In this document: in pieces, positions 25,361 through 53,805 of the stretch
How the letters are laid out: each line of letters begins with the position of its first letter
Position numbering within the stretch: the first letter of the stretch is position 1
NCBI GenBank assembly: GCA_016874775.1
Contig: VGTJ01000002.1
Coordinates: 8,700 to 72,699 of the forward strand
Length of the DNA stretch: 64,000 bases
From: Deltaproteobacteria bacterium
GTDB taxonomy: Bacteria > Desulfobacterota > Binatia > Bin18
Reading direction: 5' to 3'
Program-made: the position numbers and the translations under genes
The notes under the pieces: model-generated
Told to the model about the DNA's origin: nothing
The model's input: the letters and a program-made list of their open reading frames with translations, nothing else
The model's database searches: none

Positions 25361-25365
25361 GCGCC

Positions 25366-32113: not shown

Positions 32114-32145
32114 ATCATGCACAGGGAGAGAGCAACGAGGCACGC

Positions 32146-33144: not shown

Positions 33145-33160
33145 AACGGAACCGCTACAC

Positions 33161-35872: not shown

Positions 35873-35917
35873 ACGCGGCTGTGAAGTCTACAGCCTATGG
35901 CTTACTTTTTATAACCT

Positions 35918-36673: not shown

Positions 36674-36721
36674 CACGTACCATGCAGCACAACACACACA
36701 TCACAAGTAAGTGAGGAACCT

Positions 36722-37492
36722 ATGCCTAGTAATTATGTCATCGATATGGACGGGGTGATTTATCTTGGTAACGAACTCATTCCCGGCGCAAAGCACTTTA
36801 TTGACCGCCTCACGAAGGGAAACCATCGGTTTCTTTTTCTCACCAACAGTTCAAATCTGACGCCGCCGGACTTACAGCGCAAACTCAGCAAAATGGGAAT
36901 CGAGGTCAGCGAACATCATTTTTTCACCTCAGCCATGGCCACCGCTGATTTCCTCAACAACCAGTTGCCCAATGGCCGTGCGTTCATCATCGGCGGAGAA
37001 GGGCTACGCGAAGCGCTCCTCGCCGTAGGATACACAATTACCGAAGATCGCCCCGACTACGTCATCGTCGGCACCACCCGGACATATGACTATGACCGCA
37101 TGGAAAAAGCTGTAGCTCTCGTTCGTGGTGGAGCACGGCTTATCGGGACCAATCCCGATGTCACTGGCCCATCTGATCATGGAATTATTCCAGCGTGCGG
37201 CGCATTGGTTGCACCTATTCAGCTCGTGACCGGAGCCCATCCCTATTTTGTCGGTAAGCCAAATCCGTTGATGATGCGCACAGCCCTGCGTCGGTTACGT
37301 GCGCATTCAGGAGATACCTTTATGGTTGGGGATCGTATGGATACGGATGTCATCGCTGGCACTGAAGCGGGTATGCGTACGATTCTCGTGTTATCCGGCG
37401 TCACCAGACGTGAAGACATCTCCACGTATGCCTTCCGTCCGCATTATGTGTTCGATACAGCTGGTGATATTCCAGTTGATGAGCTAAATTAA
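36722..37492 (+). CDS. HAD-IIA family sugar-phosphate phosphatase (NagD-like)
   Basis: VIDMDGVIY is the DxDG motif I. FLTNSS (motif II) and the C-terminal GDRMDTDVIAG (motif IV) are present. Confidence 0.8.
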   Translation: MPSNYVIDMDGVIYLGNELIPGAKHFIDRLTKGNHRFLFLTNSSNLTPPDLQRKLSKMGIEVSEHHFFTSAMATADFLNNQLPNGRAFIIGGEGLREALLAVGYTITEDRPDYVIVGTTRTYDYDRMEKAVALVRGGARLIGTNPDVTGPSDHGIIPACGALVAPIQLVTGAHPYFVGKPNPLMMRTALRRLRAHSGDTFMVGDRMDTDVIAGTEAGMRTILVLSGVTRREDISTYAFRPHYVFDTAGDIPVDELN

Positions 37493-37601: not shown

Positions 37602-39170
37602 ATGCCATTTACTGAATCTGCTGGGCAGCATCGCCCGATATTTTATCATCCCTCTGGTGACACCGCGCGCCAGATTACCCTGAACGCGCGGGAAAAACTG
37701 GATTATTTTACCCGCCTGCCAATCTTTGGCGATGTGCTTGATGAACTTTTTGAAAAGATGCGTCCTGTCCTCATGCCTGACGGTAGCAAACAGCGACGTG
37801 ACATTTACGTCCGGGACGCGCTGGTTGAGAATGCCGATTTCTACGAAGTGCCAGCAGGGACGGTCATCTTTCAGGAGGGAAGCTTCGGCGAGCATCTCTT
37901 CATCGTCCTCAAAGGAACGGTACGCACCAACACCAGCGTCTCGTTAGATAACGAACGTAAAGCAATGGTTCCGCTCGAAGACCTCAAAGACGGGCACTTC
38001 TTTGGTGAGATGTCTGCGCTCTCCATGAATTCCCATCTCATCACGGCTGAGGCGGTGACGCCGACACTGTTGCTCCTGGTGCCGCAGTTTATCGTTCAAG
38101 AACTCGCAAAAACTCAAGATGCGTTCCGTGGCCCGATCATGCAAGAGTATGTACGACGAGCAGTGCTCACCCTGCTTCGTCGTATTCCGATGCTGCGTTT
38201 CACCTCCGACAACGACATCACACGTCTCCTAGAGAAAGTGGAGTTGAAGACGTTTGAAGCTGGCGACATCATCTTTGAAGAAGACGATCCACCAGACGAC
38301 TTGTATGTCATCCATCAAGGGTTCGTCAAAATCTCGAAGCGCGGCGAAGCCCGACAGCGCATTCTCAGCTATCTCAGTGAAGGCGATTGCTTCGGCGAAA
38401 TCGGCGTCCTGAACAATGCCCCACGCGCAGCAAGTGCGACAGCCATGAGCCGTACGGAGTTGCTGGTCGTGCCAGGTCCACAGTTCCAAATACTGGTCAA
38501 TGCCAACCCACAAGCGATCCAGGAAAGTCGCGGCGTTGCCAATCTACGTCGGTTAGATGCCGACATGGCACAAGACGTGACATTTATTGGTGCACGGTTG
38601 CAGTTCAAAGCCGAGGTGATGCCGAACCTGGATGTTCTCGCCATCGATGAAACCCTCTGCGTTCGTTGCGATAACTGCGTAAAGTCGTGTGCCGCCGCTC
38701 ACGATGATGGCATCTCTCGCCTTATTCGTAAGGGAACGATCTTTCAGGAGATGCTGTTACCCACAGCGTGTCGGTTCTGCCAGGATCCCGTGTGCCTCTT
38801 GTGCAAGTCAGGTGGTATCAAACGCGACAAAGACGGAGATATCTACTTCACCGATAGTTGTATTGGTTGCAGCGGGTGTGCGCAACGCTGCCCGTACGGC
38901 AACATTATTATGGTCGACATCGAAGAGTTGGAGCATTTGACACCACCGACCTTAGCGGATCAGCTTTTTCATATCGCTGCCCACAAACGCGGCGAAACCG
39001 TTGGGGCTGAGCAACGCCCACGGTTGAAAAAGGTGCCGGTCAAGTGTGACCTCGATAAGGGCCACCTCTTTCCCGCGTGTGTGAACAACTGCCCAACCCA
39101 AGCCATTCGGCGCTACCGGGCCGATGAACTTGACGTCATCATCACTGGACAACGTAACAAGAAGTCTTAA
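37602..39170 (+). CDS. tandem cyclic-nucleotide-binding (CAP-effector) domains fused to a C-terminal multi-[4Fe-4S] ferredoxin-like domain
   Basis: The first cNMP domain is ...FGEHLFIVLKGTV...GHFFGEMSAL...ITAEAV. The second is DIIFEEDD...GDCFGEIGVLNNAPRAASATA, carrying the FGE...R(S/A)A phosphate-binding cassette. Four Cys clusters follow: CVRCDNCVKSC, CRFCQDPVCLLC, CIGCSGCAQRCP and C...CVNNCP. Confidence 0.75.
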   Translation: MPFTESAGQHRPIFYHPSGDTARQITLNAREKLDYFTRLPIFGDVLDELFEKMRPVLMPDGSKQRRDIYVRDALVENADFYEVPAGTVIFQEGSFGEHLFIVLKGTVRTNTSVSLDNERKAMVPLEDLKDGHFFGEMSALSMNSHLITAEAVTPTLLLLVPQFIVQELAKTQDAFRGPIMQEYVRRAVLTLLRRIPMLRFTSDNDITRLLEKVELKTFEAGDIIFEEDDPPDDLYVIHQGFVKISKRGEARQRILSYLSEGDCFGEIGVLNNAPRAASATAMSRTELLVVPGPQFQILVNANPQAIQESRGVANLRRLDADMAQDVTFIGARLQFKAEVMPNLDVLAIDETLCVRCDNCVKSCAAAHDDGISRLIRKGTIFQEMLLPTACRFCQDPVCLLCKSGGIKRDKDGDIYFTDSCIGCSGCAQRCPYGNIIMVDIEELEHLTPPTLADQLFHIAAHKRGETVGAEQRPRLKKVPVKCDLDKGHLFPACVNNCPTQAIRRYRADELDVIITGQRNKKS

Positions 39171-39193
39171 CGCCAGCAGGAGACGAGAAGCGT

Positions 39194-40267
39194 ATGCGGT
39201 CACCCGCACGTTGGTATGTTATCGCTACCATATTAGTAGCTCTGGTCAACATCGCGTATTACGATCACTATACGGCACACTTGGTCGGGCCGCCGTCGGG
39301 CCGCACGTTTGAAGGGCTCGTTCTGGGGAATCTCGGGTTTGCGGCCATGATCGGTGCGCTGCTGTATAGTGTCCGCCGTCGCTTTCTCAGTCGCGCAATG
39401 AACGCGATCCGCGTTGATCCAGATGTACGACGGAAGATTAAAGAAGGCGAGCGCACCGCACTTGAACAGCTGCAAAACTTGCAACGCCAGGTCATGCAGA
39501 ATGCCTCACTGACGGTTTCCGCAGTTCGTCGTCAAGCGAGCGCCATCCTGCGACAAACCGGGATGAAACGTTTTCTCTATGCCCAAGTGGATGCCGGTCC
39601 AGGCGGACGTGGTGTACGGTTGGCCATTGGTCGACGCGAGTGGGGAGGCCGTTTACAGACCTGGTATTACTGGCACTTGATGCTTGGCCTCCTCTCGATC
39701 TTGCTCATTCTGACGCACGCGGGTTTTCGTTTCGGTAATCTGGTCGCCGTCCTCGCTCTCATCTGCCTGATTGGCGTCGTAGCGACAGGGACTTGGGGCT
39801 ACATCATTTATCAACTTGTTCCCACGGCCTTGACCAAGGTGGAAGAACGAGTCGAAAAAACGCCAGAAGAGTTGCGCGATGAGTTACAAGAAGTGACCCA
39901 AGAGTTAGAAACGATTATCCAAGGCAAATCCCAACTGTTCAATGAAATCTATCAACAGGAAACCGCTATCCCTGGGGTGAGTCTCAAGCCATCGTGGCGT
40001 TGGTTGTGGGCACCAGCAGAAATTGCCCGCGATACGACCCGTCCGGATCGTCTACGTCTGATCGTCAAAGAAATTCCCGGCACCGAACAAGAAGATTTCC
40101 GCCAGATGGTGCGGTTACTCTTCCAGAAAGAGAAACTTGAAGTCTCACTTTACCCGCAGTTGCGGTACGACTATCTGCTGAAGATCTGGCTCAGTTTGCA
40201 TATTCCGTTAACCGCTGGGCTGATGATCTTTTCACTCATTCACATTGTCTCGATCCTCTACTACTAA
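39194..40267 (+). CDS. polytopic membrane protein with two H-x13-H transmembrane pairs, candidate di-haem b-type cytochrome
   Basis: Four or five hydrophobic helices are visible. Helix 3 reads WHLMLGLLSILLILTH and helix 5 reads LHIPLTAGLMIFSLIH. Each has His-x13-His, the spacing that ligates two b haems in a four-helix bundle (as in cytochrome b of the bc1 complex). Helix 1 ends with HYTAH. A ~90-aa cytoplasmic coiled region lies between helices. Confidence 0.5.
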   Translation: MRSPARWYVIATILVALVNIAYYDHYTAHLVGPPSGRTFEGLVLGNLGFAAMIGALLYSVRRRFLSRAMNAIRVDPDVRRKIKEGERTALEQLQNLQRQVMQNASLTVSAVRRQASAILRQTGMKRFLYAQVDAGPGGRGVRLAIGRREWGGRLQTWYYWHLMLGLLSILLILTHAGFRFGNLVAVLALICLIGVVATGTWGYIIYQLVPTALTKVEERVEKTPEELRDELQEVTQELETIIQGKSQLFNEIYQQETAIPGVSLKPSWRWLWAPAEIARDTTRPDRLRLIVKEIPGTEQEDFRQMVRLLFQKEKLEVSLYPQLRYDYLLKIWLSLHIPLTAGLMIFSLIHIVSILYY

Positions 40268-40287
40268 ACGCAGAAGGAATAGCGGCC

Positions 40288-43200
40288 ATGATCAAGCTCA
40301 CGGTACAGACCGGAACAGAAACAGGGAAAGAGATCTCCCCCTCAAGCGATCCGATTATTCTCGGACGGAGTAGCACCTGTACGGTCGTGCTCCATGATGC
40401 CGCAGTGTCTCGTCGCCATTCCAGCATTGAACGGCGCGGTAACGACTATATCTTGACCGATCTCCAAAGTGGCAACGGGACGTTTGTCAACTCACAAGGA
40501 ACGCGCATTACCGAGCCCTATACGCTGAAAGACGGCGATGAAATCCTCATCGGGAAAAGTCGTATCCGTGTAGACCTGTCGCTGCAGTCGCAGGAAAGTC
40601 CGGGGCCGCGCAACACTGCCAGTGCAGGACAACCCGCGGCTGCGACAGACGAATCCACTCGTATTGCCCAAGCACCGCCACCGGTCAGCCCAACCCCACC
40701 GGTCAGTCCAACGCCGCCGACTGCAACGGACGGTCTCAATGCCGTTCATCAACCAGACGTGCCGATCGTTGTGACTATCGTTGGTGGCCCAAACCGCGGC
40801 ATGGTTTACTCTCCGGCACGAGAGGTTATTTCCATCGGTCGTGCAACAACATGTGACATTGCCGTCAATGACTCTACCGCTTCTCGGGTGCATGCCACGA
40901 TTAAGCGGGAGGCAGGGAAATACCGCCTGTATGATAACAATAGTGTCAATGGTGTGTATTTAAGCACCCCGCAAACTCGCGTCTATCAAACCGACCTCGC
41001 TGATGGAGATACATTTTTCGTTGGCCAGAACCAATTTCGCGTCGAAATCCATCTTACGCATCCCCCTGTATCCTTAGAAGTTGGCAGTGAAGAAGCCATG
41101 CGCATTACTGGAACCGTCGGCGGCAAAAACTTTACTTTCACCCTGAGCGCGCTCAGCGGCGGCACACGAGCAACGCAGATAGTGCCAACCGATGAAGCAA
41201 CTCGCGTTGCGATGGCACAAAGCAGTACCCCACCTCTTGATGAAGCAACCCGTTTTGTTAGGCAACCTGCGGTTCCACCAAAGCAACCGACGAGCGCGGC
41301 TCCGGCTGGTCCTAAAATTTCCCTACGGGTGATCGAAGGAGCAGATCAAGGGACGGTTTTCACTCCTCTTCCTGGTGTGGAACGTTACACCATCGGTCGT
41401 GGCGAACAAGCAACGTTTCGTCTGCAAGATCGCGGAGCATCACGTATTCACTGCGCAATCGAGATTTCCCCCGCTGGGTTTTTCCTAGTCGATGATGGAA
41501 GCCTGAACGGGACGTTTATCGGACAGAACACCGAGCGTATTACTCGTGTGGCTCTCAAGGGCGGCGAAGAAGTCTTGCTGGCAGACACTCGGTTCAAGGT
41601 TGAGATCACCCTTCCTGAAGGTGCCGCAGCCGCCGCTGAGGGTGCCGATGAAAAGACCTCGTATGTTCCCTATCATGCGCCAACTCCACCAGCCGCAACA
41701 CCGGATGCACCAGTACCTGTGGTCGTTGAGCAGCCCGCCACCGAGAATGTCAGGTCACGTTCGGCGGCGTTCAAAGATCGTTTAGCTATTATCGCTCGGC
41801 AAAGTGGAGTGACGTTACGACCGTTCACAGTTCCCGGCACTCCTCGACAGTGGGCCACATTTGCCTTGATGTTGGTTGCAGCCCTGAGTTCGTATGGCTT
41901 CGCGGTGCTCGGACGGTCTGACTATTTTGCCGGTGGTCCAATTTCAGAAAGTCACGCCAAGCTAGAGAACGGCACCTTTGAACAGCGCTGTACAGCGTGC
42001 CATCCCACTTGGGGTCTTCAACCAGTCAATGCCACCTGCGCCGCCACGGACTGTCACGCTGATGTATTGAAAGTGAGAGACGACCGGCGTGACGATTGCG
42101 TCAGTTGTCATACTGAACACCGAGGCCGGACCTTCGCGATCAAAGGCGGAAAAGAGCAATGTTGGAGTTGTCATGAAGCAGGCATGAACGTCCGTGCGTA
42201 TGCCTCACGTCCGATGGGAGTGTATCACACGCAAGTCTTTTCTGTCGCTGAACAGCTGATCCCACAACCCGGAAAAGTGCCGACGCAAGGGATACAACCG
42301 GCAGCACTCTCCACCGCACGAGAGACCTGGCAGAAAGATTTCTCTGCGCAGCCGACTGGGCTCAAGTATGCACACGCTCTCCACAGCGCGCAGGTGTTAG
42401 AGAAAAACAAGAAGCAGGAGCAATGTTTGGATTGCCACGTCAAGTTATTAGACGGGCAGTTTGCGCCATTCCCCACACATGCTCAGTGTATCGATTGTCA
42501 CAAAGAGGTTGCCAACGTCGATCCCCAGATCGCCAAGAAGAGCGCCTCGAAAGATTGTGAGTTGTGCCACACCCAGGCCGACGGGGGTGTGACCCATGTC
42601 GCACGAAATATCAACTACGTCGTCTTTCAGCATAACGATCATGGGCAAATGCGCTGTGTTCAGTGTCATGCGGTTGTGACAAGCGAGACTGAGTATCGCC
42701 CGGTCCTCCGCTCTTCAGCAGCATATCCGATGCCGATGGACGCCTGCTATTCGTGTCATGAAGAGAAGAAAGTAACGATCGCCTGCTTAGATTGCCATCG
42801 ACAACATCACAGTTATCCATCGACGACCGAATTGGCTTGGGGTTGGTTTGGTGGTCTGTCATTGAACGGCGTGCTTCTTTCTATGCTTGGACTCGTAGGT
42901 GCGACCGGTGCCTATATCTACGCAGACATGCGCCTCGCTCGACGATGGCTGGCGTCATTAGAAACGGCTACGCCACCCCCCGCAAACGAAGCGGCACCAG
43001 CAGCAGCAGGACACGACGGGCATGAGGGAGAAGCGGCACCAGCAGCAGCGGCACCAGCAGCGGCGATCCCACCACCTACTCCGAGTAGTGAGGGAGCCCT
43101 GTACCCCTATCCGACAATTGACTCCGACGCCTGTCTGCCATGCGGTACCTGTTATGACTCATGTCCCGGAAAAGTACTGGCACTGTCTCCAGCGACACAC

Positions 43201-44280
43201 AAGGCTGCGGTTGTCACTCCTGGTGCATGTCGGTCACTCACCGAAGGCTGTACCATTTGTCATGAGAACTGCCCGACCGGCGCGATCCGTATCTCGCCTG
43301 TGCCGATCGTCAGAAAATCTGAACGACCGGATATTGACCCCAACAGCGAAAGTCACAATGTTCCGGGCATCTTTTTGGGCGGAGAAATTCTGGGCAACGC
43401 TCTCATCAAAAAGGTCGTCAATCAGGGCGGACAAATTGTTCGTTACATCGATACTCGTAAACCGCGGATTCCTGAAGCCCAGTACGACGTTATCATCGTC
43501 GGTGCTGGTCCTTGTGGACTCGCTGCCGGTCTCGAAGCCAAACAACGTGGTCTTCGGTACGTGGTGCTTGAACGCGAGAGTTTGGCGAATACGATCCAGA
43601 ACTACCCACGAGATAAAGCCGTGCTCGCCGAACCAGTGCAGATGGCAGTCTACGGCTTGTTACCGATGAAAGATGCAACCAAGGAAGACCTCGTCGCACT
43701 GTGGGAAGACATTGTCCGCAAGGAAAGCTTGCACGTGAATACCCACGAAGAGGTCAGCGAAGTCAAGAAGAACGGCAACGTGATAACCGTCACCACGAAT
43801 AAAGGCACCTATCAGACCGGGTATGTGATTCTCGCCTTAGGTGCGCGGGGCAACCCTCGCAAACTCGGTGCAGCGGGTGAGGATCTTCCTAAAGTATCGT
43901 ATAACCTCAACGACCCTGCAGAATGGCAAGGGAAGCACGTGCTGGCCGTCGGTGGCGGTGACAGCGCCATTGAGGCGGCAGTAGCGATCTCCAAACAGCC
44001 AGGGGCCACGGCGACAATCTCGTATAGAAGCGGGGCTTTCTCGCGCGCGGCAGCACGAAACGTCGAAGCCATTAAAGAACAAGAAAAAGCCGGAAAACTG
44101 AAAGTGTTATTGAATTCTAACGTCACAAAAATCGAAGAGAAACGGGTCTCAATCAAAGCAGGGAACGAAGTCCACGAACTCGACAATGACGCCGTGTTTG
44201 TCCTCATCGGTGCTGATCCACCAAAGGCCTGGCTGGAAAAAATGGGGATAAAATACGTGATTGTTGAGAAAACGATCTAA
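40288..44280 (+). CDS. 1330-aa multidomain fusion protein: three FHA domains, TM helix, periplasmic ~10-haem cytochrome c, TM helix, 2x[4Fe-4S] ferredoxin, FAD/NAD(P)-binding pyridine-nucleotide oxidoreductase
   Basis: The three FHA domains are ILGRSSTCTVVL...SRRHSSI...NGTFVN, ISIGRATTCDIAV...SRVHATI...SVNGVYL and YTIGRGEQATFRL...SRIHCAI...SLNGTFIG. Pro-rich linkers join them (PPVSPTPPVSPTPP). TM1 is WATFALMLVAALSSYGFAVLG. Nine CxxCH motifs plus one Cx4CH (CAATDCH) follow. TM2 is GLSLNGVLLSMLGLVGATGAYIYA. Then come CLPCGTCYDSCP plus C...CTICHENCP, then YDVIIVGAGPCGLAAG and VLAVGGGDSAIEAA Rossmann motifs. The reading frame is uninterrupted throughout. Confidence 0.8.
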   Translation: MIKLTVQTGTETGKEISPSSDPIILGRSSTCTVVLHDAAVSRRHSSIERRGNDYILTDLQSGNGTFVNSQGTRITEPYTLKDGDEILIGKSRIRVDLSLQSQESPGPRNTASAGQPAAATDESTRIAQAPPPVSPTPPVSPTPPTATDGLNAVHQPDVPIVVTIVGGPNRGMVYSPAREVISIGRATTCDIAVNDSTASRVHATIKREAGKYRLYDNNSVNGVYLSTPQTRVYQTDLADGDTFFVGQNQFRVEIHLTHPPVSLEVGSEEAMRITGTVGGKNFTFTLSALSGGTRATQIVPTDEATRVAMAQSSTPPLDEATRFVRQPAVPPKQPTSAAPAGPKISLRVIEGADQGTVFTPLPGVERYTIGRGEQATFRLQDRGASRIHCAIEISPAGFFLVDDGSLNGTFIGQNTERITRVALKGGEEVLLADTRFKVEITLPEGAAAAAEGADEKTSYVPYHAPTPPAATPDAPVPVVVEQPATENVRSRSAAFKDRLAIIARQSGVTLRPFTVPGTPRQWATFALMLVAALSSYGFAVLGRSDYFAGGPISESHAKLENGTFEQRCTACHPTWGLQPVNATCAATDCHADVLKVRDDRRDDCVSCHTEHRGRTFAIKGGKEQCWSCHEAGMNVRAYASRPMGVYHTQVFSVAEQLIPQPGKVPTQGIQPAALSTARETWQKDFSAQPTGLKYAHALHSAQVLEKNKKQEQCLDCHVKLLDGQFAPFPTHAQCIDCHKEVANVDPQIAKKSASKDCELCHTQADGGVTHVARNINYVVFQHNDHGQMRCVQCHAVVTSETEYRPVLRSSAAYPMPMDACYSCHEEKKVTIACLDCHRQHHSYPSTTELAWGWFGGLSLNGVLLSMLGLVGATGAYIYADMRLARRWLASLETATPPPANEAAPAAAGHDGHEGEAAPAAAAPAAAIPPPTPSSEGALYPYPTIDSDACLPCGTCYDSCPGKVLALSPATHKAAVVTPGACRSLTEGCTICHENCPTGAIRISPVPIVRKSERPDIDPNSESHNVPGIFLGGEILGNALIKKVVNQGGQIVRYIDTRKPRIPEAQYDVIIVGAGPCGLAAGLEAKQRGLRYVVLERESLANTIQNYPRDKAVLAEPVQMAVYGLLPMKDATKEDLVALWEDIVRKESLHVNTHEEVSEVKKNGNVITVTTNKGTYQTGYVILALGARGNPRKLGAAGEDLPKVSYNLNDPAEWQGKHVLAVGGGDSAIEAAVAISKQPGATATISYRSGAFSRAAARNVEAIKEQEKAGKLKVLLNSNVTKIEEKRVSIKAGNEVHELDNDAVFVLIGADPPKAWLEKMGIKYVIVEKTI

Positions 44281-44309
44281 GGCCTCGCCACCTCCCCCGT
44301 ACAAATGCC

Positions 44310-44337
44310 GTAGGGACGTCGCAGACGACGCCCCTAC
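44310..44337 (+). terminator. GC-rich hairpin downstream of the fusion gene, possible terminator lacking a U-tract
   Basis: GTAGGGACGTCG-caga-CGACGCCCCTAC begins 30 nt after the stop at 44280. The stem is 12 bp with one mismatch. Confidence 0.35.
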
Positions 44338-44421
44338 AGTACCCACCGTCTGACAATAAAATACTTCTAGAATAGGCCGATAAAGTAGGGTACAGTAATT
44401 TGCAGTACAAAGAGGTATCGT

Positions 44422-44919
44422 ATGAACCTGTACCGGATCGCCACTCTTGTTATCGTGCCGTGGTTGGGCCTTTTGACAGCGACATCCTCTTCGTTCGGGG
44501 AAACATCACAGCCTGCTACGGTTATTGCAGCCTCACCAGAACAGGCCCAACAACAAGCTCCATTATTCACCTTTTTGCAGGGCTATTTCTCGTCGTTAGC
44601 CCAAGGCGAGGTGAATAAACTGGCCCAGTACCACCCCACCCTGACGACAGAGCAACTTTCTACTTTGCAAGGCTATTTTTCTCACACGATTCGTGACTTA
44701 CACATCGATGTGCGCAATGTACAAGTCCAGCTCACGGCGAATACCGCTACGGTCTCGTTTTTCCGCACCGATCGTTTTATTGATCGCCTCACAGAACGAC
44801 AGATCGAAAAGAGTATTCAATTGTCGACTGTTCTTGAATATGGTGCAAATGGGTGGCGGCTCGGCGGCCTTGATCAGGTCGCGTTTGCCTTAGTGCCGCG
44901 CACCACTCAGGCGGGGTAG
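44422..44919 (+). CDS. small secreted NTF2-like/SnoaL-like protein, paralogous to the C-terminal domain of the adjacent Ser/Thr kinase
   Basis: The signal peptide is MNLYRIATLVIVPWLGLLTATSS. The core LQGYFSHTIRDLHIDVRNVQVQLTANTATVSFFRTDRFIDR resembles the kinase C-terminus LEGYKSYSVSFRDVSVRNEGNRAVVRFIRVDTIDGK. Confidence 0.5.
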   Translation: MNLYRIATLVIVPWLGLLTATSSSFGETSQPATVIAASPEQAQQQAPLFTFLQGYFSSLAQGEVNKLAQYHPTLTTEQLSTLQGYFSHTIRDLHIDVRNVQVQLTANTATVSFFRTDRFIDRLTERQIEKSIQLSTVLEYGANGWRLGGLDQVAFALVPRTTQAG

Positions 44920-44929
44920 ACAAAAAAGC

Positions 44930-47900
44930 CTATCGCGTGCGAGCAACACGCCCGCCATTACTTTTTTCTAACTTGACTTCTTTCGGTGGCAGGGCAAGAG
45001 TCTTGCCATCTATCGTGTCAACTCGGATGAAGCGGACCACCGCACGGTTCCCTTCGTTGCGGACGCTCACATCCCGGAACGATACACTGTAGCTTTTGTA
45101 CCCCTCCAGGATCCCACGAAGTCTGGTCGCGTCCTGTGCTGAGATTTCGCCGAGCTGCACCAGGGCATCCGTATTTTTGTTTTCCCATGCCGGGCGATAG
45201 ATGGTTTCCAGCCAGTTCATGGCTTCTCTATCACTGGGAGGTCCGGCTTCCTTTGCCCGTTCAGTTTCTTCGCGTTGGACCTTCGCCAATCGTTCCTCTT
45301 CCGCCAGTCTCGCGGCTTCTGCTTTCCGCCGCTCTTCCTCTGCAGCTCTCTGGCGAACGGCCTCTTCTGCTCTGCGCCGTTCCTCTTCCGCTCGTGCAGT
45401 TTTCTCTTGTTCAGCTCTCAAGCGCTCAGCTTCTGCCTTTGCTGCCTTCTCTTGTTCCGCTTTCAACCGATCGGCCTCCGCCTTTGCCGCTTTCTCTTGA
45501 TCCGCCTTGAGCTTTTCAGCTTTGGCTTGTTCGGCTTTCACACGATCGGCTTCCGCTTTTGCCGCCTTTTCTTGTTCAGCTTTGAGTCGTTCCGCCTCGG
45601 CCCGTAGGGTCTTTTCTTGTTCAGCTTTTAGGCGGTCAGCTTCCGCTTTTGCCGCTTTCTCTTGGTCCGCCTTAAGCTTCTCAGCTTTGGCTTGTTCGGC
45701 TTTCACACGATCGGCTTCCGCTTTTGCTGCTTCCGCCTTTCGCCGATCTTCCTCTGCTTTCTGAGCTTTGGCTACTTCTTCAGCTTTGCGGCGATCGTCT
45801 TCTGCCTTTTGGGATTTAGCTACCTCCTCGGCCTTACGACGTTCTTCCTCTGCTTTCAATTGGTCGGCTTTGGCTTGTTCAGCTTTCAGACGCGCCTCTT
45901 CTTCTTGTGCTGCATTCGCTTGGGCGGCCTTTCGGGCTTCTTCCTCCTGCGCCTGCTGAGTCGACGGTTTCTGCGGGTTAACTGACTCTCCTCCTCGGCT
46001 GAAATAAAACCCTAAGGCAGCAACAACGACAAACGCGGCGATACCTGCGACAACTGGCGAAGATTGACGCGCAGGAGAAGGGGCATCCACGGGAACGGGA
46101 CGACTGGTACGCTCGCCTTCCGTTGTTGGCCCCTGATCAAGCAGCGGATGGACTTCTGTTTCTTGCTGCTGCAATGCGGAGAGAAGTGCAGAGGCTTCAT
46201 TATAGCTCGCGAGCGCTTGTGGGTAGCGTTTTTGCTGAAACGACTGATCGCCTGTAGTGATAAACTTCTCAGCTGACTTTTTCTGTTTCCCTTTCGCAGT
46301 CTGCGTTTGTTGTCGCAGCTCGTACGCGCGAGTTCTTGCACCCTCGGCTTCATGCTTTTGCCATGCAACCTCAGACTCTTGGCGAATCTGTTTCCAGCGC
46401 GAAACATTACGGTCAAACTGGTCTCGTGCCGCATCAAACTTTTCGTCGGCAAGCGCCTGCTCTGCCTTATGCAACTCAGACATCGCCTCGACATGTTGAC
46501 CAGGAAGAAATTCTTCACTCCTGACCGCCTGGGCCTCTGCCTGGGCTGCAACGGCCCGTTTCTGCGACTCTGTCGCGGCTTGCTTCGCTCGGGCAAGCCG
46601 GGCAATTCCCAATGCCTGACCAAACAACTCTCCTGCTTGCGCTGAGAGCGTAACCGATTCCTCGAATTGCTTTGCAGCTAACGCAGCCTCCGCCTGCTCT
46701 CGCACTTCCTGTGCTTGTCGATAGAGGTCTGCAGCATATTGTGGAGCATGCACGGCGTCAGCTTCGCGTTGACGTCCTTTCGCTTCTTGATTAGCCAAGA
46801 GGGCACGTTGCTGCTGCTCCTCTACTTCAGCTTCAGCTTGCGCGTACTCATAGATCTGTGCAGCCTGCGCATAATGCGCGCGGGCTTGCTCATACGCCTG
46901 TGCCTGCCACGCTTTCTCACCTTCGGTCTCGGAGGTTTGCGCTTCTTTCCACCGGGCTGCGGCAAAACGAGGAGCTAGGGTGCTGGCCGCTTGTTTTGCC
47001 TGTGCGGCTTGCTGCCGCACAACATCGGCCTCTTCCTGAGCAATTTGTTGCTGCACCGCCTGAACGAGCTTGATAAACTGTTGTTGCGCTTGTTCGTAAT
47101 TCTGGCGGGCTGTAGTGAAGTCATCTTTTTTTTGCGCAGCCTGGCCACGTTCGAAAAGTCCTCGAACCTGAGCAAACTCGCGCGGGAAACGTTGCTCGGC
47201 AGAACTCTGGGTTGCGGCAGATCCTGCTTCTTCTGCACGTTGCAGAGCAGCAAGCATTTCCTGCTTAGCGTACTCATGCTGTGCCGTACCCTTCGCCTGC
47301 ACAAAGAGTTCTTCTGCGTGGCGATACTCACGTGTAGCTTGACTAAATTTTTGCTGTCGTTGGTGGCGACTCGCTTCATCGAGAGCCGCCGCCGCCTGGT
47401 TAAAATCCGTGGCCGCATAGCGTGGGGCATCAACTTCTTCGGCTTGCTTCTTCGCAGTACCAGCCTGTTTTTCTGCCGCAGCGGTTTCTTGTCGGAGTCG
47501 TTCCTGTTCTCCTGCTGTCGCTGCCGTCGTGTATAACTGCGCCGTCTGTGTGTACTGCGCCAGTGCGTTTTCGTAGTCTTGGTCTGAGAACGCTCGCTCG
47601 GCATCGGCTTCTTGCTTCTGCGCGGCCTCCCATTGTGCGTTGGCCCATTGTTTCAGCTCACTCGCGTTCTCTTTCGCCTGCAGCATCTGTTGGCGCGCCG
47701 CTGCAGCGTCTTCGCGTGCAGCCTCAACGTCTGCGTCACGACGAAGACGCAACAGTTGCTGACGAGCCTGTTCGTATAAATCACTCGCTTGGGAGAAGTC
47801 TTGTTGTGTTTCCGCTTGTTGTCCCCGGACAACTACCTGTTGAGCACGAGCAAACTCTTGTGCGAAGCGTGAGTGGACTGCCGCTTCAGTGGCTGCAACC

Positions 47901-50900
47901 TGAGCAGCTTCCAATCGCTGACGCAGGGCAATGACAGCCTGCCGCGCTCTTTCTTGTTGTGCATCGTGCGCAGCTTGTGACCACAGTGACCGTGCTTGTG
48001 CAAACGCTTGGCTGGCATCGTTCCAGTGCTGGGCGTGCATCTGTTGTTCGGCCTGTTGAGCAGTCTGCGCCCCTTGCTGAAAGAGCGCCGTAGCGTACCT
48101 TTCCGCCTCAGCTCGTTGCGCTTCAGCGCGAGCTTCTTCCGCTTGTTGCTGCGCATCGAGTGCGCGGCGTCGCTGCCGCTCGATCTCAGCTGCGTGTCGA
48201 GCCTTCTCGGCCTCTGTTCGCGCTTCTATGTAACGTTGCGTGACGCGATCATACGCTTCTGCTGCTTTCGCATACTGCTGGGCTTCCCAGGCGGCGTTCG
48301 CTTCAGCTTCTGTTCGTTCCGCGTCAGCCCATTTCGCTCCGCGCCATTCAGTGAGCCCCGCCAATCCATTCCTAGATTCAGCCGCACGTTTCCGTGCGGC
48401 TTCCGCCTTTTCCTTCTCAGCTTGCCGAAAGGCTTCGCCCCCAAGACGCTCCCAGAGTTGACGTGCTTGCTGATAGGCCTCGCTTGCCTGAGAGAAATTC
48501 TCTTGCGTTTCCGCTTGGGCCGCTTGCTCAACAAGGTGTGAGGCTTTAGCAAAATCCGTGGCAAAGCGTTGTGCAGCCCCGGACTTCTCGGCAATCTGCC
48601 GTGCTTCCGTTGTACGTTGTCGAGCGCTTACGGCTTCCTGTCTGTGACGTTCCCGTTGCGCATCGTCAGCAGCTTTCGCCAGCAGCTCTGCCGCGCGCCA
48701 ATAGCGTTGAATCGCCGCCCGCAATTCTTTGGTGCGAATCTGTTTTTCAGCGTCGCTCAGTGCAGCAAGCCCATCGCGCCACAACTCAGCAGCGTAACGC
48801 GTTGCTTCGCGTTGTTCAGCGCGCGTTTTTGCAGACTGCGCTTGCTGCTGTGCATCACGGACTTCCTGTTGTAATTGTTCTTGCTCAGCGTTAGTGCGTG
48901 CTTGGGTATAAGCCTTCGCAGCCTGAGTGTAGAGATCCGTAGCACTGCGATATTCTTGCTTCTGGTAGGCCTGGTCCGCACGCTGCACACGTTCACGCGC
49001 CTGCGCCCAGTTCTCCTTAGCCCAGGCCTGCAGGGGCTCACTCCCCTGCACCACTTCTGCCATTTTCTGCCGCGCGGTATCAGCCTGCTCACGGGCAGCA
49101 AGCACGGCACATTCACGCGCGAGTTGTTGAAAGCGCTGGGCGGCCTCTGTATAGCGGTGGCGAGATTCGCGATATTGCTCTCGCTTTTCGTGCTCTTGTC
49201 CCTCGGCAACCAAGCGTTGAATCTGTTGGTAGGAGGAAGCCGCGCGTTCCTTTGCTTCCGCTTGGTCAGCTTGCACTTGGGCTTGTTGCAGCTGTTGCCG
49301 GACTGCAGCAGTAGCCTGTCGATCTTGTTCGGTAGCGGCTTCTTGGGTGGCTTGCTCATAGCGATCGCGCGCCTGCAGATACGCCTGCTTGGCCTTGTCA
49401 TACGCCTTCGCTTGCAACTGCGTGTCACCTTGCTTCTGGAACAAGGTAGCTTGCTGATACAACGGAGAGGCAAGATCGCGCGCCTGCGCGTCTTCAGCTT
49501 GACGCTGTGCTTCTTTGGCTTGTTGTTGGACGGCGACGGTTTCTAACCGTTGCTGTTCATTGACTGCCTCTTGTTGCGCACGCTCATATTTTTGCGCAGC
49601 AGCAAGATATAACTCACGCGCTTGGGTAAATTCTTCATGCGTGATTGCTGCACTTGCCCGTTGTTCTTGATCTGCAGCTTCACGAAAGAGGTTAGCGGCA
49701 AGTCGTGTCGCACCTTGCTCTTCCGCCGCCGCTTTTGCAGCGGTCGCCCGCGCATGCGCTTTCTCTGCTTCGTCTTTTAGGGTCTCACGGTACGCTTGCT
49801 CGCGAGCATCAGCGAAGGAACGTGCAGCTTCACTATAGCCGTGCGCCGCGTGCTGAAAATCACCTTTCTCAAGAAATTCATCAGCTTGCGATTCCAGGGT
49901 GAGGGCACGCGCGTATCGCGTGCGCGCGTGCCCTCGTGCGCCGTAGTGCTCAGCCTCTTCCTTGGCGGCGGCCATGTTACCCCGTGCCTGCTCGGCTTTC
50001 CGTTTGGCTGCTGCGGTTTGCGCTTCTGCGGCTGCCTGGGTGAAGATCTGGATGGCCTCATCGAATGCTTGTTGAGCTGCGGTAAAGTCCTTGTCCCGTA
50101 AGCTCTTCGCACCGTGTCCTTCCGCCGTCATTCCTTGCTGAAGCAAGGTGGCAGCCCATTCTGACGCACCGTCACGAGTCGCGCGTTCGCGTGCCTCACG
50201 CGCTTGCGTCTGGAGCGACAAAATACGACGACGCTCCCGTTCTTCTTCAAGTTTGCGGATCTGGTCTTCGATATCGTCGTCAGCCTGTGCCTCTTGCTTT
50301 TTCTCTTCTTTTTTTCCCAGCCCAGAGAGAATCAGCGTACCGGTGTCTTCTCCATCAGCGCTCAAATTCCGACAGCTCTCTAGCGCTTGCAGTAGTTCCC
50401 GCATGCTGTGGTAGCGATGGGCACGATTTTTCGCGATCGCCCGCGTCAACAGGTCAGCAAACGCGGCAGGCGTTGGGCGATCAAAGTGCGGCTCGTTCTC
50501 TTTGGTATCGTACAAGACCTTGCCCAGCACGGCATGTTCATCGAGCCCGCCGAAGAATTGCCTACCGGTGCACATCTCATACATCACCATACCCAGCGAA
50601 TAGACATCCGCTCCACCGTCAAGCTGCTCATGGCGCAGTTGCTCAGGCGAGGCATATTTCAAGGTCCCGATCACCATGCCGGTCTTGGTGGAATCGCCAT
50701 CGCCCAGTTCCTTGGCGATGCCAAAGTCCATCACCACCACGCGTGACGAATGGTCCTCAATCATGATGTTGGCGGGTTTGATGTCACGATGGATGATCGG
50801 CGGGGTATGGCCGTGGGCATAGCCTAGGGCTTCAGCGACCTGGCGCGAGATACGCAGAATTTCCGGCAGCGGCAACGGGCCTTTTTCACGGATGTATTTT

Positions 50901-51199
50901 CCAAGCGTCACCCCCTCGATGTACTCCATGACAAAGTAGTAGAGGTTCAGAGTCTCATCGCGCTCGATATCAAGGACACGAACGATATTGGGATGGTTAA
51001 GCCGAGCCATGACGCGCGCTTCCCGATAGAAGCGGTTCACCATGTCTTCGTTTTCCATCAAATACGCAGGCAGGACCTTGAGGGCAGAGATGGTGTCGAG
51101 GGCGGTGTGGCGAACTTTATACACCAGCCCCATGCCACCTTGACCCAGTTGGCCAACAACCTCGTACTTGCGGGAAATCACCATCGGCTTAGTTGCCAT
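44930..51199 (-). CDS. giant (2089-aa) Hanks-type Ser/Thr protein kinase: N-terminal kinase domain, a ~1100-aa degenerate helical repeat region, TM helix, a ~300-aa K/E/A-rich TolA-like spacer, C-terminal NTF2-like domain
   Basis: The kinase domain has GQGGMGLVYKV, the K in ALKVL, HRDIKPANIMI, DFGIAKE and GTLKYASPEQ. Repeated W..A..W...Y..A..Y and RFA.EFA blocks follow. The TM helix is VVAGIAAFVVVAALGFYF. Then come KAEQEKAAKAEADRLKAEQ repeats, and then the NTF2-like domain. Confidence 0.9.
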   Translation of the reverse strand: MATKPMVISRKYEVVGQLGQGGMGLVYKVRHTALDTISALKVLPAYLMENEDMVNRFYREARVMARLNHPNIVRVLDIERDETLNLYYFVMEYIEGVTLGKYIREKGPLPLPEILRISRQVAEALGYAHGHTPPIIHRDIKPANIMIEDHSSRVVVMDFGIAKELGDGDSTKTGMVIGTLKYASPEQLRHEQLDGGADVYSLGMVMYEMCTGRQFFGGLDEHAVLGKVLYDTKENEPHFDRPTPAAFADLLTRAIAKNRAHRYHSMRELLQALESCRNLSADGEDTGTLILSGLGKKEEKKQEAQADDDIEDQIRKLEEERERRRILSLQTQAREARERATRDGASEWAATLLQQGMTAEGHGAKSLRDKDFTAAQQAFDEAIQIFTQAAAEAQTAAAKRKAEQARGNMAAAKEEAEHYGARGHARTRYARALTLESQADEFLEKGDFQHAAHGYSEAARSFADAREQAYRETLKDEAEKAHARATAAKAAAEEQGATRLAANLFREAADQEQRASAAITHEEFTQARELYLAAAQKYERAQQEAVNEQQRLETVAVQQQAKEAQRQAEDAQARDLASPLYQQATLFQKQGDTQLQAKAYDKAKQAYLQARDRYEQATQEAATEQDRQATAAVRQQLQQAQVQADQAEAKERAASSYQQIQRLVAEGQEHEKREQYRESRHRYTEAAQRFQQLARECAVLAAREQADTARQKMAEVVQGSEPLQAWAKENWAQARERVQRADQAYQKQEYRSATDLYTQAAKAYTQARTNAEQEQLQQEVRDAQQQAQSAKTRAEQREATRYAAELWRDGLAALSDAEKQIRTKELRAAIQRYWRAAELLAKAADDAQRERHRQEAVSARQRTTEARQIAEKSGAAQRFATDFAKASHLVEQAAQAETQENFSQASEAYQQARQLWERLGGEAFRQAEKEKAEAARKRAAESRNGLAGLTEWRGAKWADAERTEAEANAAWEAQQYAKAAEAYDRVTQRYIEARTEAEKARHAAEIERQRRRALDAQQQAEEARAEAQRAEAERYATALFQQGAQTAQQAEQQMHAQHWNDASQAFAQARSLWSQAAHDAQQERARQAVIALRQRLEAAQVAATEAAVHSRFAQEFARAQQVVVRGQQAETQQDFSQASDLYEQARQQLLRLRRDADVEAAREDAAAARQQMLQAKENASELKQWANAQWEAAQKQEADAERAFSDQDYENALAQYTQTAQLYTTAATAGEQERLRQETAAAEKQAGTAKKQAEEVDAPRYAATDFNQAAAALDEASRHQRQQKFSQATREYRHAEELFVQAKGTAQHEYAKQEMLAALQRAEEAGSAATQSSAEQRFPREFAQVRGLFERGQAAQKKDDFTTARQNYEQAQQQFIKLVQAVQQQIAQEEADVVRQQAAQAKQAASTLAPRFAAARWKEAQTSETEGEKAWQAQAYEQARAHYAQAAQIYEYAQAEAEVEEQQQRALLANQEAKGRQREADAVHAPQYAADLYRQAQEVREQAEAALAAKQFEESVTLSAQAGELFGQALGIARLARAKQAATESQKRAVAAQAEAQAVRSEEFLPGQHVEAMSELHKAEQALADEKFDAARDQFDRNVSRWKQIRQESEVAWQKHEAEGARTRAYELRQQTQTAKGKQKKSAEKFITTGDQSFQQKRYPQALASYNEASALLSALQQQETEVHPLLDQGPTTEGERTSRPVPVDAPSPARQSSPVVAGIAAFVVVAALGFYFSRGGESVNPQKPSTQQAQEEEARKAAQANAAQEEEARLKAEQAKADQLKAEEERRKAEEVAKSQKAEDDRRKAEEVAKAQKAEEDRRKAEAAKAEADRVKAEQAKAEKLKADQEKAAKAEADRLKAEQEKTLRAEAERLKAEQEKAAKAEADRVKAEQAKAEKLKADQEKAAKAEADRLKAEQEKAAKAEAERLRAEQEKTARAEEERRRAEEAVRQRAAEEERRKAEAARLAEEERLAKVQREETERAKEAGPPSDREAMNWLETIYRPAWENKNTDALVQLGEISAQDATRLRGILEGYKSYSVSFRDVSVRNEGNRAVVRFIRVDTIDGKTLALPPKEVKLEKSNGGRVARTR
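45420..45770. repeat. near-identical in-frame tandem DNA repeats (165-bp period with ~82-bp sub-period) inside the kinase gene
   Basis: The unit starting TCAGCTTTGGCTTGTTCGGCTTTCACACGATCGGCTTCCGCTTTTGCCGC at 45516 recurs at 45681 with only 1-2 mismatches. The repeats encode the duplicated ...AKAEADRVKAEQAKAEKLKADQEKAAKAEADRLKAEQEK... segment. Confidence 0.7.
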
Positions 51200-51214
51200 G
51201 GGTGGACTTCCGAG

Positions 51215-52000
51215 TTAGCCAGCTACGGTTGGATCTTCAATGTACGACAGAATGATGATCGTACTGTTATCTCGGCCCCCACGTTCATTGGCGAGATTGA
51301 CCAGCGCATCACACGATTTTTCGAAATCTGGAGCGGTCTCGTTAATGATACGAAGCATGTCGCTATCTTCAACCACCCCATGAATCCCGTCACTACACAA
51401 GAGGTAAATATCTCCGGATTGGGGCCGTTCGAGCCGCACTGAAGGTTGGACAAGTGGACTCACCCCAACGGCTTGTGTCAACACATGACGGTGCGGAAAT
51501 GTCTTGACTTCTGTTGGTCCGATTTTGCCTTCACGGAGTAACTGCTGCACAAGCGAATGATCTTCCGTGAGGAGCTCAATCGTACCATCACGAACGCGAT
51601 AGACGCGAGAATCGCCAACATGACAAATCCCGGCAACGCTTTCGTGCTCATCAAACAAGACAGCAGCCACCGTTGTCCCCATGCCATTGAGGGCCGGGTC
51701 CTGCTGGCTCATCTCGAAAACTTTGTTATTTGCTCCCTGGATTGCGAGGAAAAGACGACGACCAGCGACCGACGACCAGCCATTCTCGGTTGTGATGGGC
51801 GTCAGATCTTCTCCCTCAGTTTCCTGGAGAACCCCATGCATCGTTTCTACAGCTAAGGCACTTGCGCGCTCTCCCCCGAGATGCCCCCCCATCCCATCCG
51901 CCACGATATAAAACGCCGCCTCGGGAAAGAATCCGGAGGAGTCCTCGTTTTTCACACGCACCTTACCCGTGTCGGTTTTAACTGCGCCACAGATGGACAC
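51215..52000 (-). CDS. PP2C-family Ser/Thr protein phosphatase
   Basis: It uses a GTG start with AAGGAG RBS. VKTDTGKVRVKNEDS...ADGMGGHLGGERAS is the PP2C metal-binding motif set. It ends 15 nt upstream of the kinase gene on the same strand, in the PstP-PknB-like arrangement. Confidence 0.85.
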   Translation of the reverse strand: MSICGAVKTDTGKVRVKNEDSSGFFPEAAFYIVADGMGGHLGGERASALAVETMHGVLQETEGEDLTPITTENGWSSVAGRRLFLAIQGANNKVFEMSQQDPALNGMGTTVAAVLFDEHESVAGICHVGDSRVYRVRDGTIELLTEDHSLVQQLLREGKIGPTEVKTFPHRHVLTQAVGVSPLVQPSVRLERPQSGDIYLLCSDGIHGVVEDSDMLRIINETAPDFEKSCDALVNLANERGGRDNSTIIILSYIEDPTVAG

Positions 52001-53752: not shown

Positions 53753-53805
53753 ACGATTGCACCTCCAGAGAAGACTCACATTCCCCGCACTCAATCAGAA
53801 CAGCA

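Follow-up and report, generated by a model that had tools for sequence, protein, structure and literature searches.

A ptd-type, putative electron-transfer gene module linked to FHA, Hanks-kinase and PP2C genes in Candidatus Binatia

We describe a cluster of six open reading frames (ORFs, labelled g1 to g6) at positions 37602-52000 of a 64,000-nt stretch of DNA, hereafter the window, from an uncultured soil/sediment bacterium (Deltaproteobacteria bacterium; Binatia; Bin18; assembly GCA_016874775.1, contig VGTJ01000002.1, positions 8,700-72,699, forward strand). An earlier sequence-only reading of this DNA had proposed that six genes here combine signalling and redox parts in a way that could not be mapped to any described system. 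All six ORFs are present (Table 1), and hidden Markov model scans with Pfam support the main domains that were named (FHA, cytochrome, flavoprotein, cyclic nucleotide monophosphate (cNMP)-binding, iron-sulphur (Fe-S), kinase and PP2C), such that the list of parts was correct and ‘NTF2-like’ is the sole label left without support. The claim that the system lacks a described counterpart does not stand, given that PtdE, PtdF and PtdG (bioRxiv 10.1101/2023.11.21.568154) have homologues here in g1, g2 and the haem portion of g3, respectively. Genes g1 to g4 lie on the forward strand, with gaps of 20-23 bp between g1 and g2 and between g2 and g3, and g6 followed by g5 lie on the reverse strand, converging on g4. 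A scan for sigma-70 promoters and terminators across 36.6-53 kb returned counts close to the shuffled expectation and is uninformative on operon structure, and an Rfam scan found no riboswitch or RNA element inside the locus. Related loci used for comparison are given L-numbers (L001 onwards).

The 1330-aa product of g3 is a fusion in which Pfam detects three FHA domains (1e-48), cytochrome c7/c3-type matches, a Fer4 dicluster at residues 943-1001 (Fer4_21) and Pyr_redox_3 at residues 1069-1322 (1e-47). Transmembrane (TM) segments are found at residues 522-542 and 854-872, and the topology that they predict, with the FHA domains inside, the haems outside and the Fe-S clusters and flavin inside, is the only one compatible with the cofactors. 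Between residues 568 and 837 there are nine CXXCH haem motifs and one CX4CH, and the tenth stretch that reads CXXCH, CTICH at residue 988, is part of an Fe-S motif; the term ‘decahaem’ proposed for g3 is consequently apt if the CX4CH site is counted as the tenth, and inapt by CXXCH alone. Database searching recovered 13 full-length protein clusters from independent samples (1285-1337 aa, 47-77% identity, same Pfam set), those with a name being Candidatus Binatia. In an alignment of 12 homologues (49-79% identity), every haem-binding Cys and His of all ten motifs, nine extra His and Met817, all eight Fe-S Cys and the dinucleotide-binding motifs are invariant or nearly so, and because the nine extra His and Met817 suffice as distal ligands, all ten haems could be hexacoordinate. 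The phosphothreonine (pThr)-binding signature GR / S-x-x-H / NG is likewise kept in each of the three FHA domains in all homologues, its residues being invariant or nearly so (FHA1: G26-R27 / S41-R43-H44 / N63-G64; FHA2: G184-R185 / S199-H202 / N218-G222; FHA3: G370-R371 / S385-H388 / N407-G408), and the juxtamembrane segment ahead of the first TM helix (SRSAAFKxRL...RPxxxPGxxRQW) is highly conserved.

The 13 full-length clusters from independent samples, together with the invariant cofactor ligands, rule out that g3 is an assembly chimera; with full-length homologues and a kept neighbourhood the fusion is real, and the joining of three FHA domains to a membrane-spanning decahaem c / ferredoxin / flavin-NAD(P) oxidoreductase in one polypeptide is confirmed by Pfam, motifs and homologues alike. 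In L006 the g3 homologue is split by an insertion sequence (DDE_Tnp_1 transposase, L006 11829-13215) that sets the FHA part apart from the cytochrome-flavoprotein part; L005, near-identical but uninterrupted, encodes a 1010-aa version that is shorter and has two FHA domains. The closest solved relative of the flavoprotein domain is YpdA/Bdr, an NADPH- and flavin adenine dinucleotide (FAD)-dependent bacillithiol-disulfide reductase (PDB 7a7b, 8.6e-36), yet the score of the g3 domain against the NCBIfam YpdA model TIGR04018 (182.7 bits) lies below the cutoff of 339.9. Moreover, the residue that corresponds to the ‘active-site’ Cys of YpdA, Cys1076, can be C, G or A among homologues; we therefore reject YpdA-type thiol-disulfide chemistry, and the variation argues for pure electron transfer; fusion of the domain to a ferredoxin, a difference from YpdA/Bdr, also points to electron transfer over disulfide reduction. 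The haem region matches an FHA-decahaem protein of L027 (E 5e-21) and, weakly, PtdG (E 6e-5), and has a sub-threshold match to QrcA (1.4e-13).

For g1, Pfam detects two cNMP_binding domains (6e-39) followed by several Fer4 families, and its 15 Cys are arranged as four ferredoxin-type groups by motif count, in line with the earlier description of a cNMP sensor fused to multiple Fe-S clusters. The Fe-S domain resembles HycB-type polyferredoxins and electron wires (PDB HycB3/HycB matches; 7qv7_A, 1e-14), and this chain of about four clusters most likely sits within the electron path, as opposed to acting solely as a sensor. In all Binatia homologues the fourth Fe-S motif (residues 482-497) reads CDLD, not CDLC, pointing to a cluster that is Asp-ligated or of the 3Fe type. 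Of the two cNMP sites, the second is canonical (PRSA) and kept in Binatia homologues; in marine PtdE, the intact and degenerate cNMP sites are swapped relative to Binatia g1.

The product of g2 has five hydrophobic helices, and no Pfam family reaches threshold on it. Four His are nonetheless invariant in 19 homologues (29-82% identity) and also in a wider set of 14 sequences: H161 and H175 on TM3 and H336 and H350 on TM5, each pair with i/i+14 spacing, on parallel helices, and with an invariant Trp preceding its first His. This is the layout of dihaem cytochromes b and of ferric-reductase domains, and it supports the description of g2 as a di-haem-b-like membrane protein, haem binding being predicted from sequence. 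From the hydrophobicity pattern and the positive-inside rule, TM3 and TM5 would both run from inside to outside, placing one His pair near each membrane face. Sub-threshold matches recur within the family (DUF4405 in 11/14, prokaryotic cytochrome b561 in 7/14, Ferric_reduct in 4/14), the best E for Ferric_reduct on g2 itself (0.35) being below significance. An exhaustive profile search with g2 returned 3350 representatives at E<=1e-3, uniting the g2 and PtdF groups, most of which are about 272 aa long and are without the cytoplasmic insertion of about 85 aa (residues ~65-150) that is specific to Binatia. A b-type cytochrome possibly linking to quinone had been envisaged, but nothing at the locus points to quinone and no quinone-site family is detected in g2, which is more likely to form the membrane-crossing step between cytoplasmic Fe-S clusters and periplasmic haems c than a quinone link.

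The ptdABCDEFG cluster was named in a 2023/24 preprint, in which PtdE is a cNMP-binding 4Fe-4S protein, PtdF a ferric-reductase-like membrane protein and PtdG a decahaem protein, and in which the genes are listed from Alpha-/Gammaproteobacteria, Nitrospirales and Planctomycetes of saline habitats; Binatia are not in its table (bioRxiv 10.1101/2023.11.21.568154). Clusters around distant g2 homologues (L004, L020/L021) encode a pentahaem protein, a porin-like protein, an NAD_binding_1+Fer2 flavoprotein, a tetrahaem protein, a cNMP and Fe-S protein, a g2-like protein and a TM-anchored multihaem protein, and because this content matches exactly, we identify them as the ptdABCDEFG operon. The order PtdE-PtdF-PtdG is that of g1-g2-g3, with significant homology for the first pair (28% identity over 429 aa against PtdE of L004, E 2e-41, identical domain order) and the second (30% over 212 aa, E 2e-9). 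PtdG and g3 share one TM segment followed by ten haem sites and the same gene position, and the weak match between them noted above is bridged by the FHA-decahaem protein of L027 and by cyt426, a free decahaem cytochrome of the window (Table 1) that is 31% identical to the former (1e-46) and matches PtdG at 1e-7. An NAD(P)H flavoprotein-ferredoxin is also common to the ptd and Binatia clusters. By contrast, the Binatia flavoprotein is of the unrelated YpdA/TrxR type and is fused to the cytochrome via a second TM segment, three FHA domains stand in g3 where PtdG has a Cys-rich N-terminus, g2 carries its insertion, genes for a kinase, PP2C, an FHA-cyclase and pentose-phosphate enzymes are linked in Binatia, and the Binatia habitat is not marine- or saline-specific. 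By homology and gene order, then, the locus is a variant of the named ptd-type module, which is functionally uncharacterised so far. What appears to be new is the triple-FHA and flavoprotein fusion, the L027-type fusion of flavoprotein with cNMP/Fe-S protein, and the repeated genomic linkage of the module with genes for a giant kinase, PP2C, an FHA-cyclase and pentose-phosphate enzymes; a literature search on multihaem or extracellular electron-transfer systems of Binatia found nothing specific.

Fusion partners differ between lineages. L027 (66% GC, 5628-8000) encodes a 790-aa protein joining a YpdA-like flavoprotein (32% to g3 residues 1067-1323, 3e-37) to two cNMP-binding domains and a four-cluster Fe-S domain (32% to g1, 2e-64), and downstream of it are a PtdF-like protein, an FHA-TM-decahaem protein with one FHA domain and an HbpS-like protein. 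In L025 (46% GC, 3288-12317) the order differs, with genes for an 18-haem cytochrome and an FHA-TM-16-haem protein flanking those for a PtdF-like and a cNMP/Fe-S protein; this locus also encodes a separate membrane-anchored protein with two FHA domains. The flavoprotein is thus partnered with the cytochrome in Binatia and with the cNMP/Fe-S protein in L027, and is an unrelated, separate PtdC in L004 and L020. This swapping of partners (the Rosetta-stone argument) argues for assigning the flavoprotein, Fe-S wire, His-rich membrane protein and multihaem cytochrome to one electron path. The role of PtdC in Binatia is apparently taken by the non-homologous Fer4 and Pyr_redox_3 domains fused to g3, and PtdC and the YpdA-like flavoprotein are, on this comparison, a case of non-orthologous replacement in the same role.

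On the opposite strand, g5 encodes a receptor Hanks Ser/Thr kinase, with Pkinase at residues 12-271 (Pfam, 1e-50) and visible HRD and DFG motifs, and the tightly paired g6 a PP2C phosphatase, an assignment that is borne out by PP2C_2 (Pfam, 8.5e-12) and by the Stp1/IreP model (5.5e-68; 228.9 bits against a cutoff of 230). Judged by these motifs and matches, both enzymes look active. The 2089-aa g5 had been read as a Hanks kinase carrying a periplasm-spanning spacer, of which the kinase stands but the spacer does not: because the sole TM segment is at residues 1712-1736, the helical Ala/Gln/Glu/Arg-rich region of about 1400 aa is placed in the cytoplasm, which leaves only an Ala/Glu/Lys coil of about 250 aa and the C-terminal ~100 aa on the outer side. 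By autocorrelation, residues ~300-1700 (46100-50302, reverse strand) consist of about 18 copies of a helical, TPR-like repeat of about 76 aa, with super-periods of 226-233 and 459 aa (self-BLAST gave nothing useful), and this region may act as a scaffold. The small g4 product is a weak paralogue of the extracytoplasmic C-terminal domain of g5 (BLASTP, 32% over 66 aa, E 2e-4) and is found elsewhere in only one locus, L007. Neither g4 nor the g5 C-terminus has a Pfam match to an NTF2-like model even at E<=10, and a single-sequence AlphaFold model of g4 (predicted local distance difference test score 40), with the order helix-helix-strand-strand-strand, is NTF2-compatible at most and too weak to count as evidence. 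Upstream of g1 lies a gene for a class III nucleotidyl cyclase with an FHA domain, the catalytic motifs of which are intact.

Conservation of the neighbourhood was assessed in 17 related Binatia-type loci, comprising 13 species-level genomes and metagenome contigs, and g1-g2-g3 occur together and in the same order in 17/17. A giant kinase, with or without PP2C, is adjacent to the trio or within 8 kb of it in the window and in L001, L003, L007, L011 and L013; orthologues of g5 (C-terminal domain 50-77% identical) abut g3 in the window, L001, L007 and L011 and lie 7 kb off in L003, and orthologues of g6 are present in L001 (65%) and L013 (60%). In both L003 and L013, kinase/PP2C genes fall within 5-7 kb of the gene for the FHA protein. 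Orthologues of the FHA-cyclase adjoin the module in L003/L009 (77%). In L013, where g3 is 35-50% identical, a single strand carries a decahaem cytochrome, g1, g2, g3, an OMP521-like barrel and, further on, cyclase-FHA, PP2C and kinase, the cyclase-FHA gene lying between g3 and the PP2C/kinase pair. Synteny in related genomes, which had been proposed as a check, is therefore conserved for the trio, and the linkage to kinase, PP2C and FHA-cyclase recurs in divergent genomes.

Taken together, we consider it slightly more probable than its negation (a probability of roughly 0.55) that the locus encodes a Binatia variant of the ptd-type inner-membrane conduit, through which electrons would leave cytoplasmic NADPH for acceptors in the periplasm and probably also at the outer membrane or outside the cell, the whole being tightly controlled post-translationally. 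The path draws on cofactor motifs, topology and gene fusions, and the control scheme on domain identity and conserved linkage only. NADPH would reduce the FAD of the YpdA/TrxR-like domain at the C-terminus of g3, from which electrons would pass to the 2[4Fe-4S] domain of the same protein, to the HycB-like wire of g1, to the cytoplasmic-side haem b of g2 (His161/His336), to its periplasmic-side haem b (His175/His350) and then to the ten c-haems in the periplasmic loop of g3, with exit through cyt426, an HbpS-like protein and outer-membrane barrels (Table 1). NADPH could be supplied by the products of the upstream zwf and gnd genes. Since outward flow from NADPH would be downhill in both redox potential and membrane potential, it would dissipate energy, and this dissipative nature would explain the heavy gating. 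In the control scheme, g5 would write pThr marks and g6 would erase them; the three FHA domains of g3 and that of the cyclase would read the marks, such that the conduit is switched or clustered and cNMP synthesis turned on, and cNMP would bind the intact second site of g1 and gate the Fe-S wire. Candidate docking sites for the FHA domains are autophosphorylated g5, the g3 linkers (by analogy with Rv1747), the loop of Binatia g2 and the conserved juxtamembrane segment. Given that the kinase, PP2C and FHA-cyclase linkage recurs in divergent genomes, control of the conduit by pThr and cNMP is a reasonable inference.

Several observations weigh against this reading, the first group of which concerns the electron path. 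The function of the ptd cluster itself ‘remains completely unknown’ (bioRxiv 10.1101/2023.11.21.568154), and the outward direction of flow rests on thermodynamic reasoning. Neither PtdA (pentahaem), PtdB (porin), PtdC nor PtdD (tetrahaem) has a tblastn match in the 64-kb window, and the OMP521 barrel family is unrelated to the PtdB porin (hhalign probability 0.1%); with PtdA, PtdB and PtdD missing and the barrels unrelated to PtdB, the outer-membrane leg of the path is conjecture. Pentose-phosphate linkage is mostly limited to close relatives. An improbable alternative is that electrons run inward, taken up by the decahaem from Fe(II) or another donor and passed via g2 and g1 to NADP+/ferredoxin or to quinone. 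In Ferrigenium straubiae, an FHA-1TM-nonahaem cytochrome (‘NHC’) is encoded beside a 5-TM protein without a database match and a 4Fe-4S protein; this cluster of like parts is expressed in an Fe(II) oxidiser, and the authors of the 2026 preprint, who note that the pairing of FHA and multihaem had not previously been reported, favour an Fe(II)-to-quinone link (bioRxiv 10.64898/2026.01.22.701106). By architecture alone, NHC is like the proteins of L027 and L025 and the middle of g3, yet it has one FHA domain, nine haems and no fused flavoprotein, and no kinase, PP2C or cyclase is reported with it. Moreover, nitrite oxidisers and sulfide-oxidising Alphaproteobacteria carry ptd clusters (bioRxiv 10.1101/2023.11.21.568154), and multihaem wires are reversible in principle. 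However, transfer from c-haems to NADP+ would be uphill in redox potential and against the membrane potential, and the locus lacks a coupling-ion module; NADPH as the donor fits with NAD(P)H flavoproteins that are fused or encoded nearby and with the adjacent NADPH-producing zwf and gnd genes; and a quinone-linked version is disfavoured by the lack of a detectable quinone-site family in g2.

The second group of adverse observations concerns control. The first cNMP site of g1 (residues 140-150) has His in place of the phosphate-binding Arg throughout the Binatia homologues; a kinase and PP2C were not found within 7-10 kb of the module in L005/L006 and L017, and no kinase is seen around the FHA-cytochrome of L025; no phospho-acceptor site was found, and inspection of the g5 repeats by eye revealed no conserved Thr docking site. 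An alternative, which we regard as unlikely, is that the conduit is real but the phospho-link is not, with the FHA domains acting as phospho-independent oligomerisation or scaffold modules, and the kinase and PP2C being frequent neighbours that serve other targets. The loci without a nearby kinase or PP2C favour this view, as do the matches of the g3 FHA domains to Yop-YscD_cpl (Pfam), recalling the FHA/YscD-like domains of secretion systems, and the lack of a conserved phospho-acceptor motif, the Thr that most homologues have in the ‘EDATRISG’ linker motif being Met in the window g3. Yet no FHA domain of any homologue has lost the pThr-contacting residues (GR, S-x-x-H, NG), orthologous giant kinases stay beside the module across 47-77% g3 divergence, and the cyclase-FHA, PP2C and kinase genes of L013 are co-directional with g1-g3.

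The density of signalling parts (four FHA domains, two cNMP-binding domains, kinase, PP2C and cyclase) is odd for a respiratory enzyme, and it could alternatively be supposed that the locus encodes a redox-sensing signalling complex, in which haems, Fe-S clusters and flavin would register the NADPH level and the redox state of the periplasm, and FHA and cNMP domains would pass this reading on to the network of kinase, phosphatase and cyclase. HbpS is a known extracellular haem/redox sensor partner, which the HbpS-like neighbour resembles, and PAS histidine kinases flank other ptd loci. Nevertheless, about 18 redox centres in a continuous cytoplasm-to-periplasm series are far beyond the need of a sensor, the core is also found without FHA or kinase, beside porins and further multihaem proteins, and g1-g3 are without an output domain (DNA-binding, kinase or cyclase), such that we hold this possibility to be improbable.

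Within the reading of the locus as an NADPH-fed conduit, a bolder and more tentative suggestion is that it represents a bacterial counterpart of the regulated NADPH oxidases (NOX) and ferric reductases (FRE) known from eukaryotes and bacteria, that is, an NADPH-to-outside valve that might be gated by pThr (kinase/PP2C/FHA) and cNMP (FHA-cyclase) at once. Members of this FRD superfamily share with the proposed path the sequence from NADPH to FAD, to two stacked b-haems (His pairs on TM3/TM5) and to an outside acceptor, and also dissipative electron export under phosphorylation or second-messenger control. They differ in that g2 is without a significant Ferric_reduct match, the window flavoprotein is of another fold family and on a separate polypeptide, and the window path interposes six Fe-S clusters and ten c-haems. 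Hmc, Tmc and Qrc of sulfate reducers and CbcL and ImcH of Geobacter likewise combine periplasmic multihaem c, membrane cytochrome b and a cytoplasmic Fe-S path, but they are built from other subunit families; the path proposed here is without an HdrD- or NrfD-like subunit, ends on the cytoplasmic side in an NADPH flavoprotein, and includes FHA and cNMP domains.

For the control scheme, precedents are the threonine-phosphorylation pathway of the type VI secretion system (T6SS; PpkA kinase, PppA PP2C and Fha1) and the FHA-regulated ABC transporter Rv1747 of Mycobacterium with its kinase PknF. Both share with the window a receptor Hanks kinase, PP2C and FHA in association with a membrane machine, and Rv1747 further shares with g3 the possession of multiple FHA domains on Thr/Pro-rich linkers; the g3 FHA domains also pull out FHA-ABC transporters in a database search. 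The difference is that the machine encoded in the window would be a redox conduit, as opposed to a secretion system or transporter.

Recurrent neighbours extend the system beyond the six genes that were originally delimited, and include outer-membrane barrels, a free decahaem cytochrome and an HbpS-like protein. Homologues of cyt426 adjoin the trio in L013 and L014, and in L014, L017 and L027 the module is immediately followed by a homologue of p581 (47% identity, 4e-145, for L027). In the 64-kb window, g3 and cyt426 are the only proteins with >=2 CXXCH. In L001, a Cytochrome_C554-type multihaem gene (22938-23876) lies beyond PP2C and an outer-membrane protein. Between p485 and cyt426 the window encodes a 202-aa secreted protein (55818-56426) and a 721-aa one, likewise secreted, that combines a matrixin-like zinc-protease motif with a dockerin domain (56452-58617), neither of which was found near the module in other loci.

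Table 1 Features of the window in and around the g1-g6 locus
Feature	Position	Strand	Description
g1	37602..39170	+	PtdE-like, cytoplasmic; two cNMP-binding domains, then HycB-like chain of ~4 Fe-S clusters
g2	39194..40267	+	PtdF-like five-helix membrane protein; predicted dihaem cytochrome b
g3	40288..44280	+	1330-aa fusion
g3 residues ~24-438	40357..41600	+	Three FHA domains, Pro/Thr-rich linkers, cytoplasmic
g3 residues 522-872	41851..42903	+	TM1, periplasmic decahaem c domain (PtdG-like), TM2
g3 residues 943-1323	43114..44256	+	2x[4Fe-4S] ferredoxin and YpdA/TrxR-like FAD/NAD(P)H flavoprotein, cytoplasmic
g4	44422..44919	+	Small secreted or anchored protein; weak paralogue of g5 extracytoplasmic C-terminal domain
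g5	44930..51199	-	2089-aa receptor Hanks Ser/Thr kinase
g5 kinase domain	50387-51166	-	
g5 TM	45992-46066	-	
g5 C-terminal domain	44933-45244	-	~100 aa
g6	51215..52000	-	PP2C Ser/Thr phosphatase, directly upstream of g5, tight pair
FHA-cyclase	23319..24215	+	Class III nucleotidyl cyclase and FHA (Guanylate_cyc + FHA); candidate source of cNMP for g1
Sugar / oxidative pentose-phosphate genes	24527..37492	+	Split tkt, tal-pgi fusion, gnd, zwf, glk, GH63-like, pgl, HAD (Pfam)
OMP521	52229..53794	-	Phenol_MetA_deg-like outer-membrane barrel (Pfam); homologues flank trio in L001, L012, L013
p485	54127..55584	+	Second barrel-like outer-membrane paralogue; 28% identity to OMP521, E 3e-25
cyt426	58880..60160	+	Free decahaem cytochrome c, PtdG family; N-terminal signal or anchor, 10 CXXCH, Pfam cytochrome c3/c7
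p581	60277..62022	+	Secreted HbpS-like (haem-binding/degrading-like) protein (Pfam)

On the other side of the module, a run of sugar and pentose-phosphate genes ends 109 bp ahead of g1 on the same strand, a possible supply of NADPH. Pentose-phosphate genes adjoin the module in five loci and, as in the window, lie ahead of g1 on its strand in L003/L009, L007 and L008, with tkt/tal divergent in L017; they are not adjacent in L013, L015 and L019. The run includes a 956-aa transaldolase-phosphoglucose isomerase fusion (26370-29240) and a transketolase split into two genes (24527-26355); in L001, a phosphoglucomutase gene (4091-5749) precedes the module in place of pentose-phosphate genes. Elsewhere in the window, a Na+/H+ exchanger is fused to two universal stress protein (Usp) domains (16475-18670), and three tandem matches to the Acido-Lenti-1 small RNA (RF01687; 50.8, 43 and 40.2 bits; alternating strands) are present at 18813-19016, an intergenic stretch that separates this fusion gene from one for a luciferase-like monooxygenase.

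A wide range of lineages carry the PtdE/PtdF core, namely marine Alpha-/Gammaproteobacteria, Nitrospirales, Planctomycetes, Gallionellaceae-type iron oxidisers and Binatia, and its transcripts are known from oxygen-deficient zones. From the fusions in Binatia and L027 comes the first sequence-level argument as to what feeds the module, an NADPH flavoprotein. If the suggestion of a regulated valve is true, the locus would encode the first electron-transport conduit switched directly by Hanks-type signalling, and a function would be assigned to the widespread PtdE/PtdF family. Descriptions of known extracellular electron-transfer systems mostly place their control at the level of transcription, and if the linkage of kinase, PP2C, FHA and cyclase is functional, bacteria would also gate an electron conduit post-translationally. 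The features of this variant give the ptd family its first testable functional hypothesis, with three core genes and a kinase domain as a compact model.

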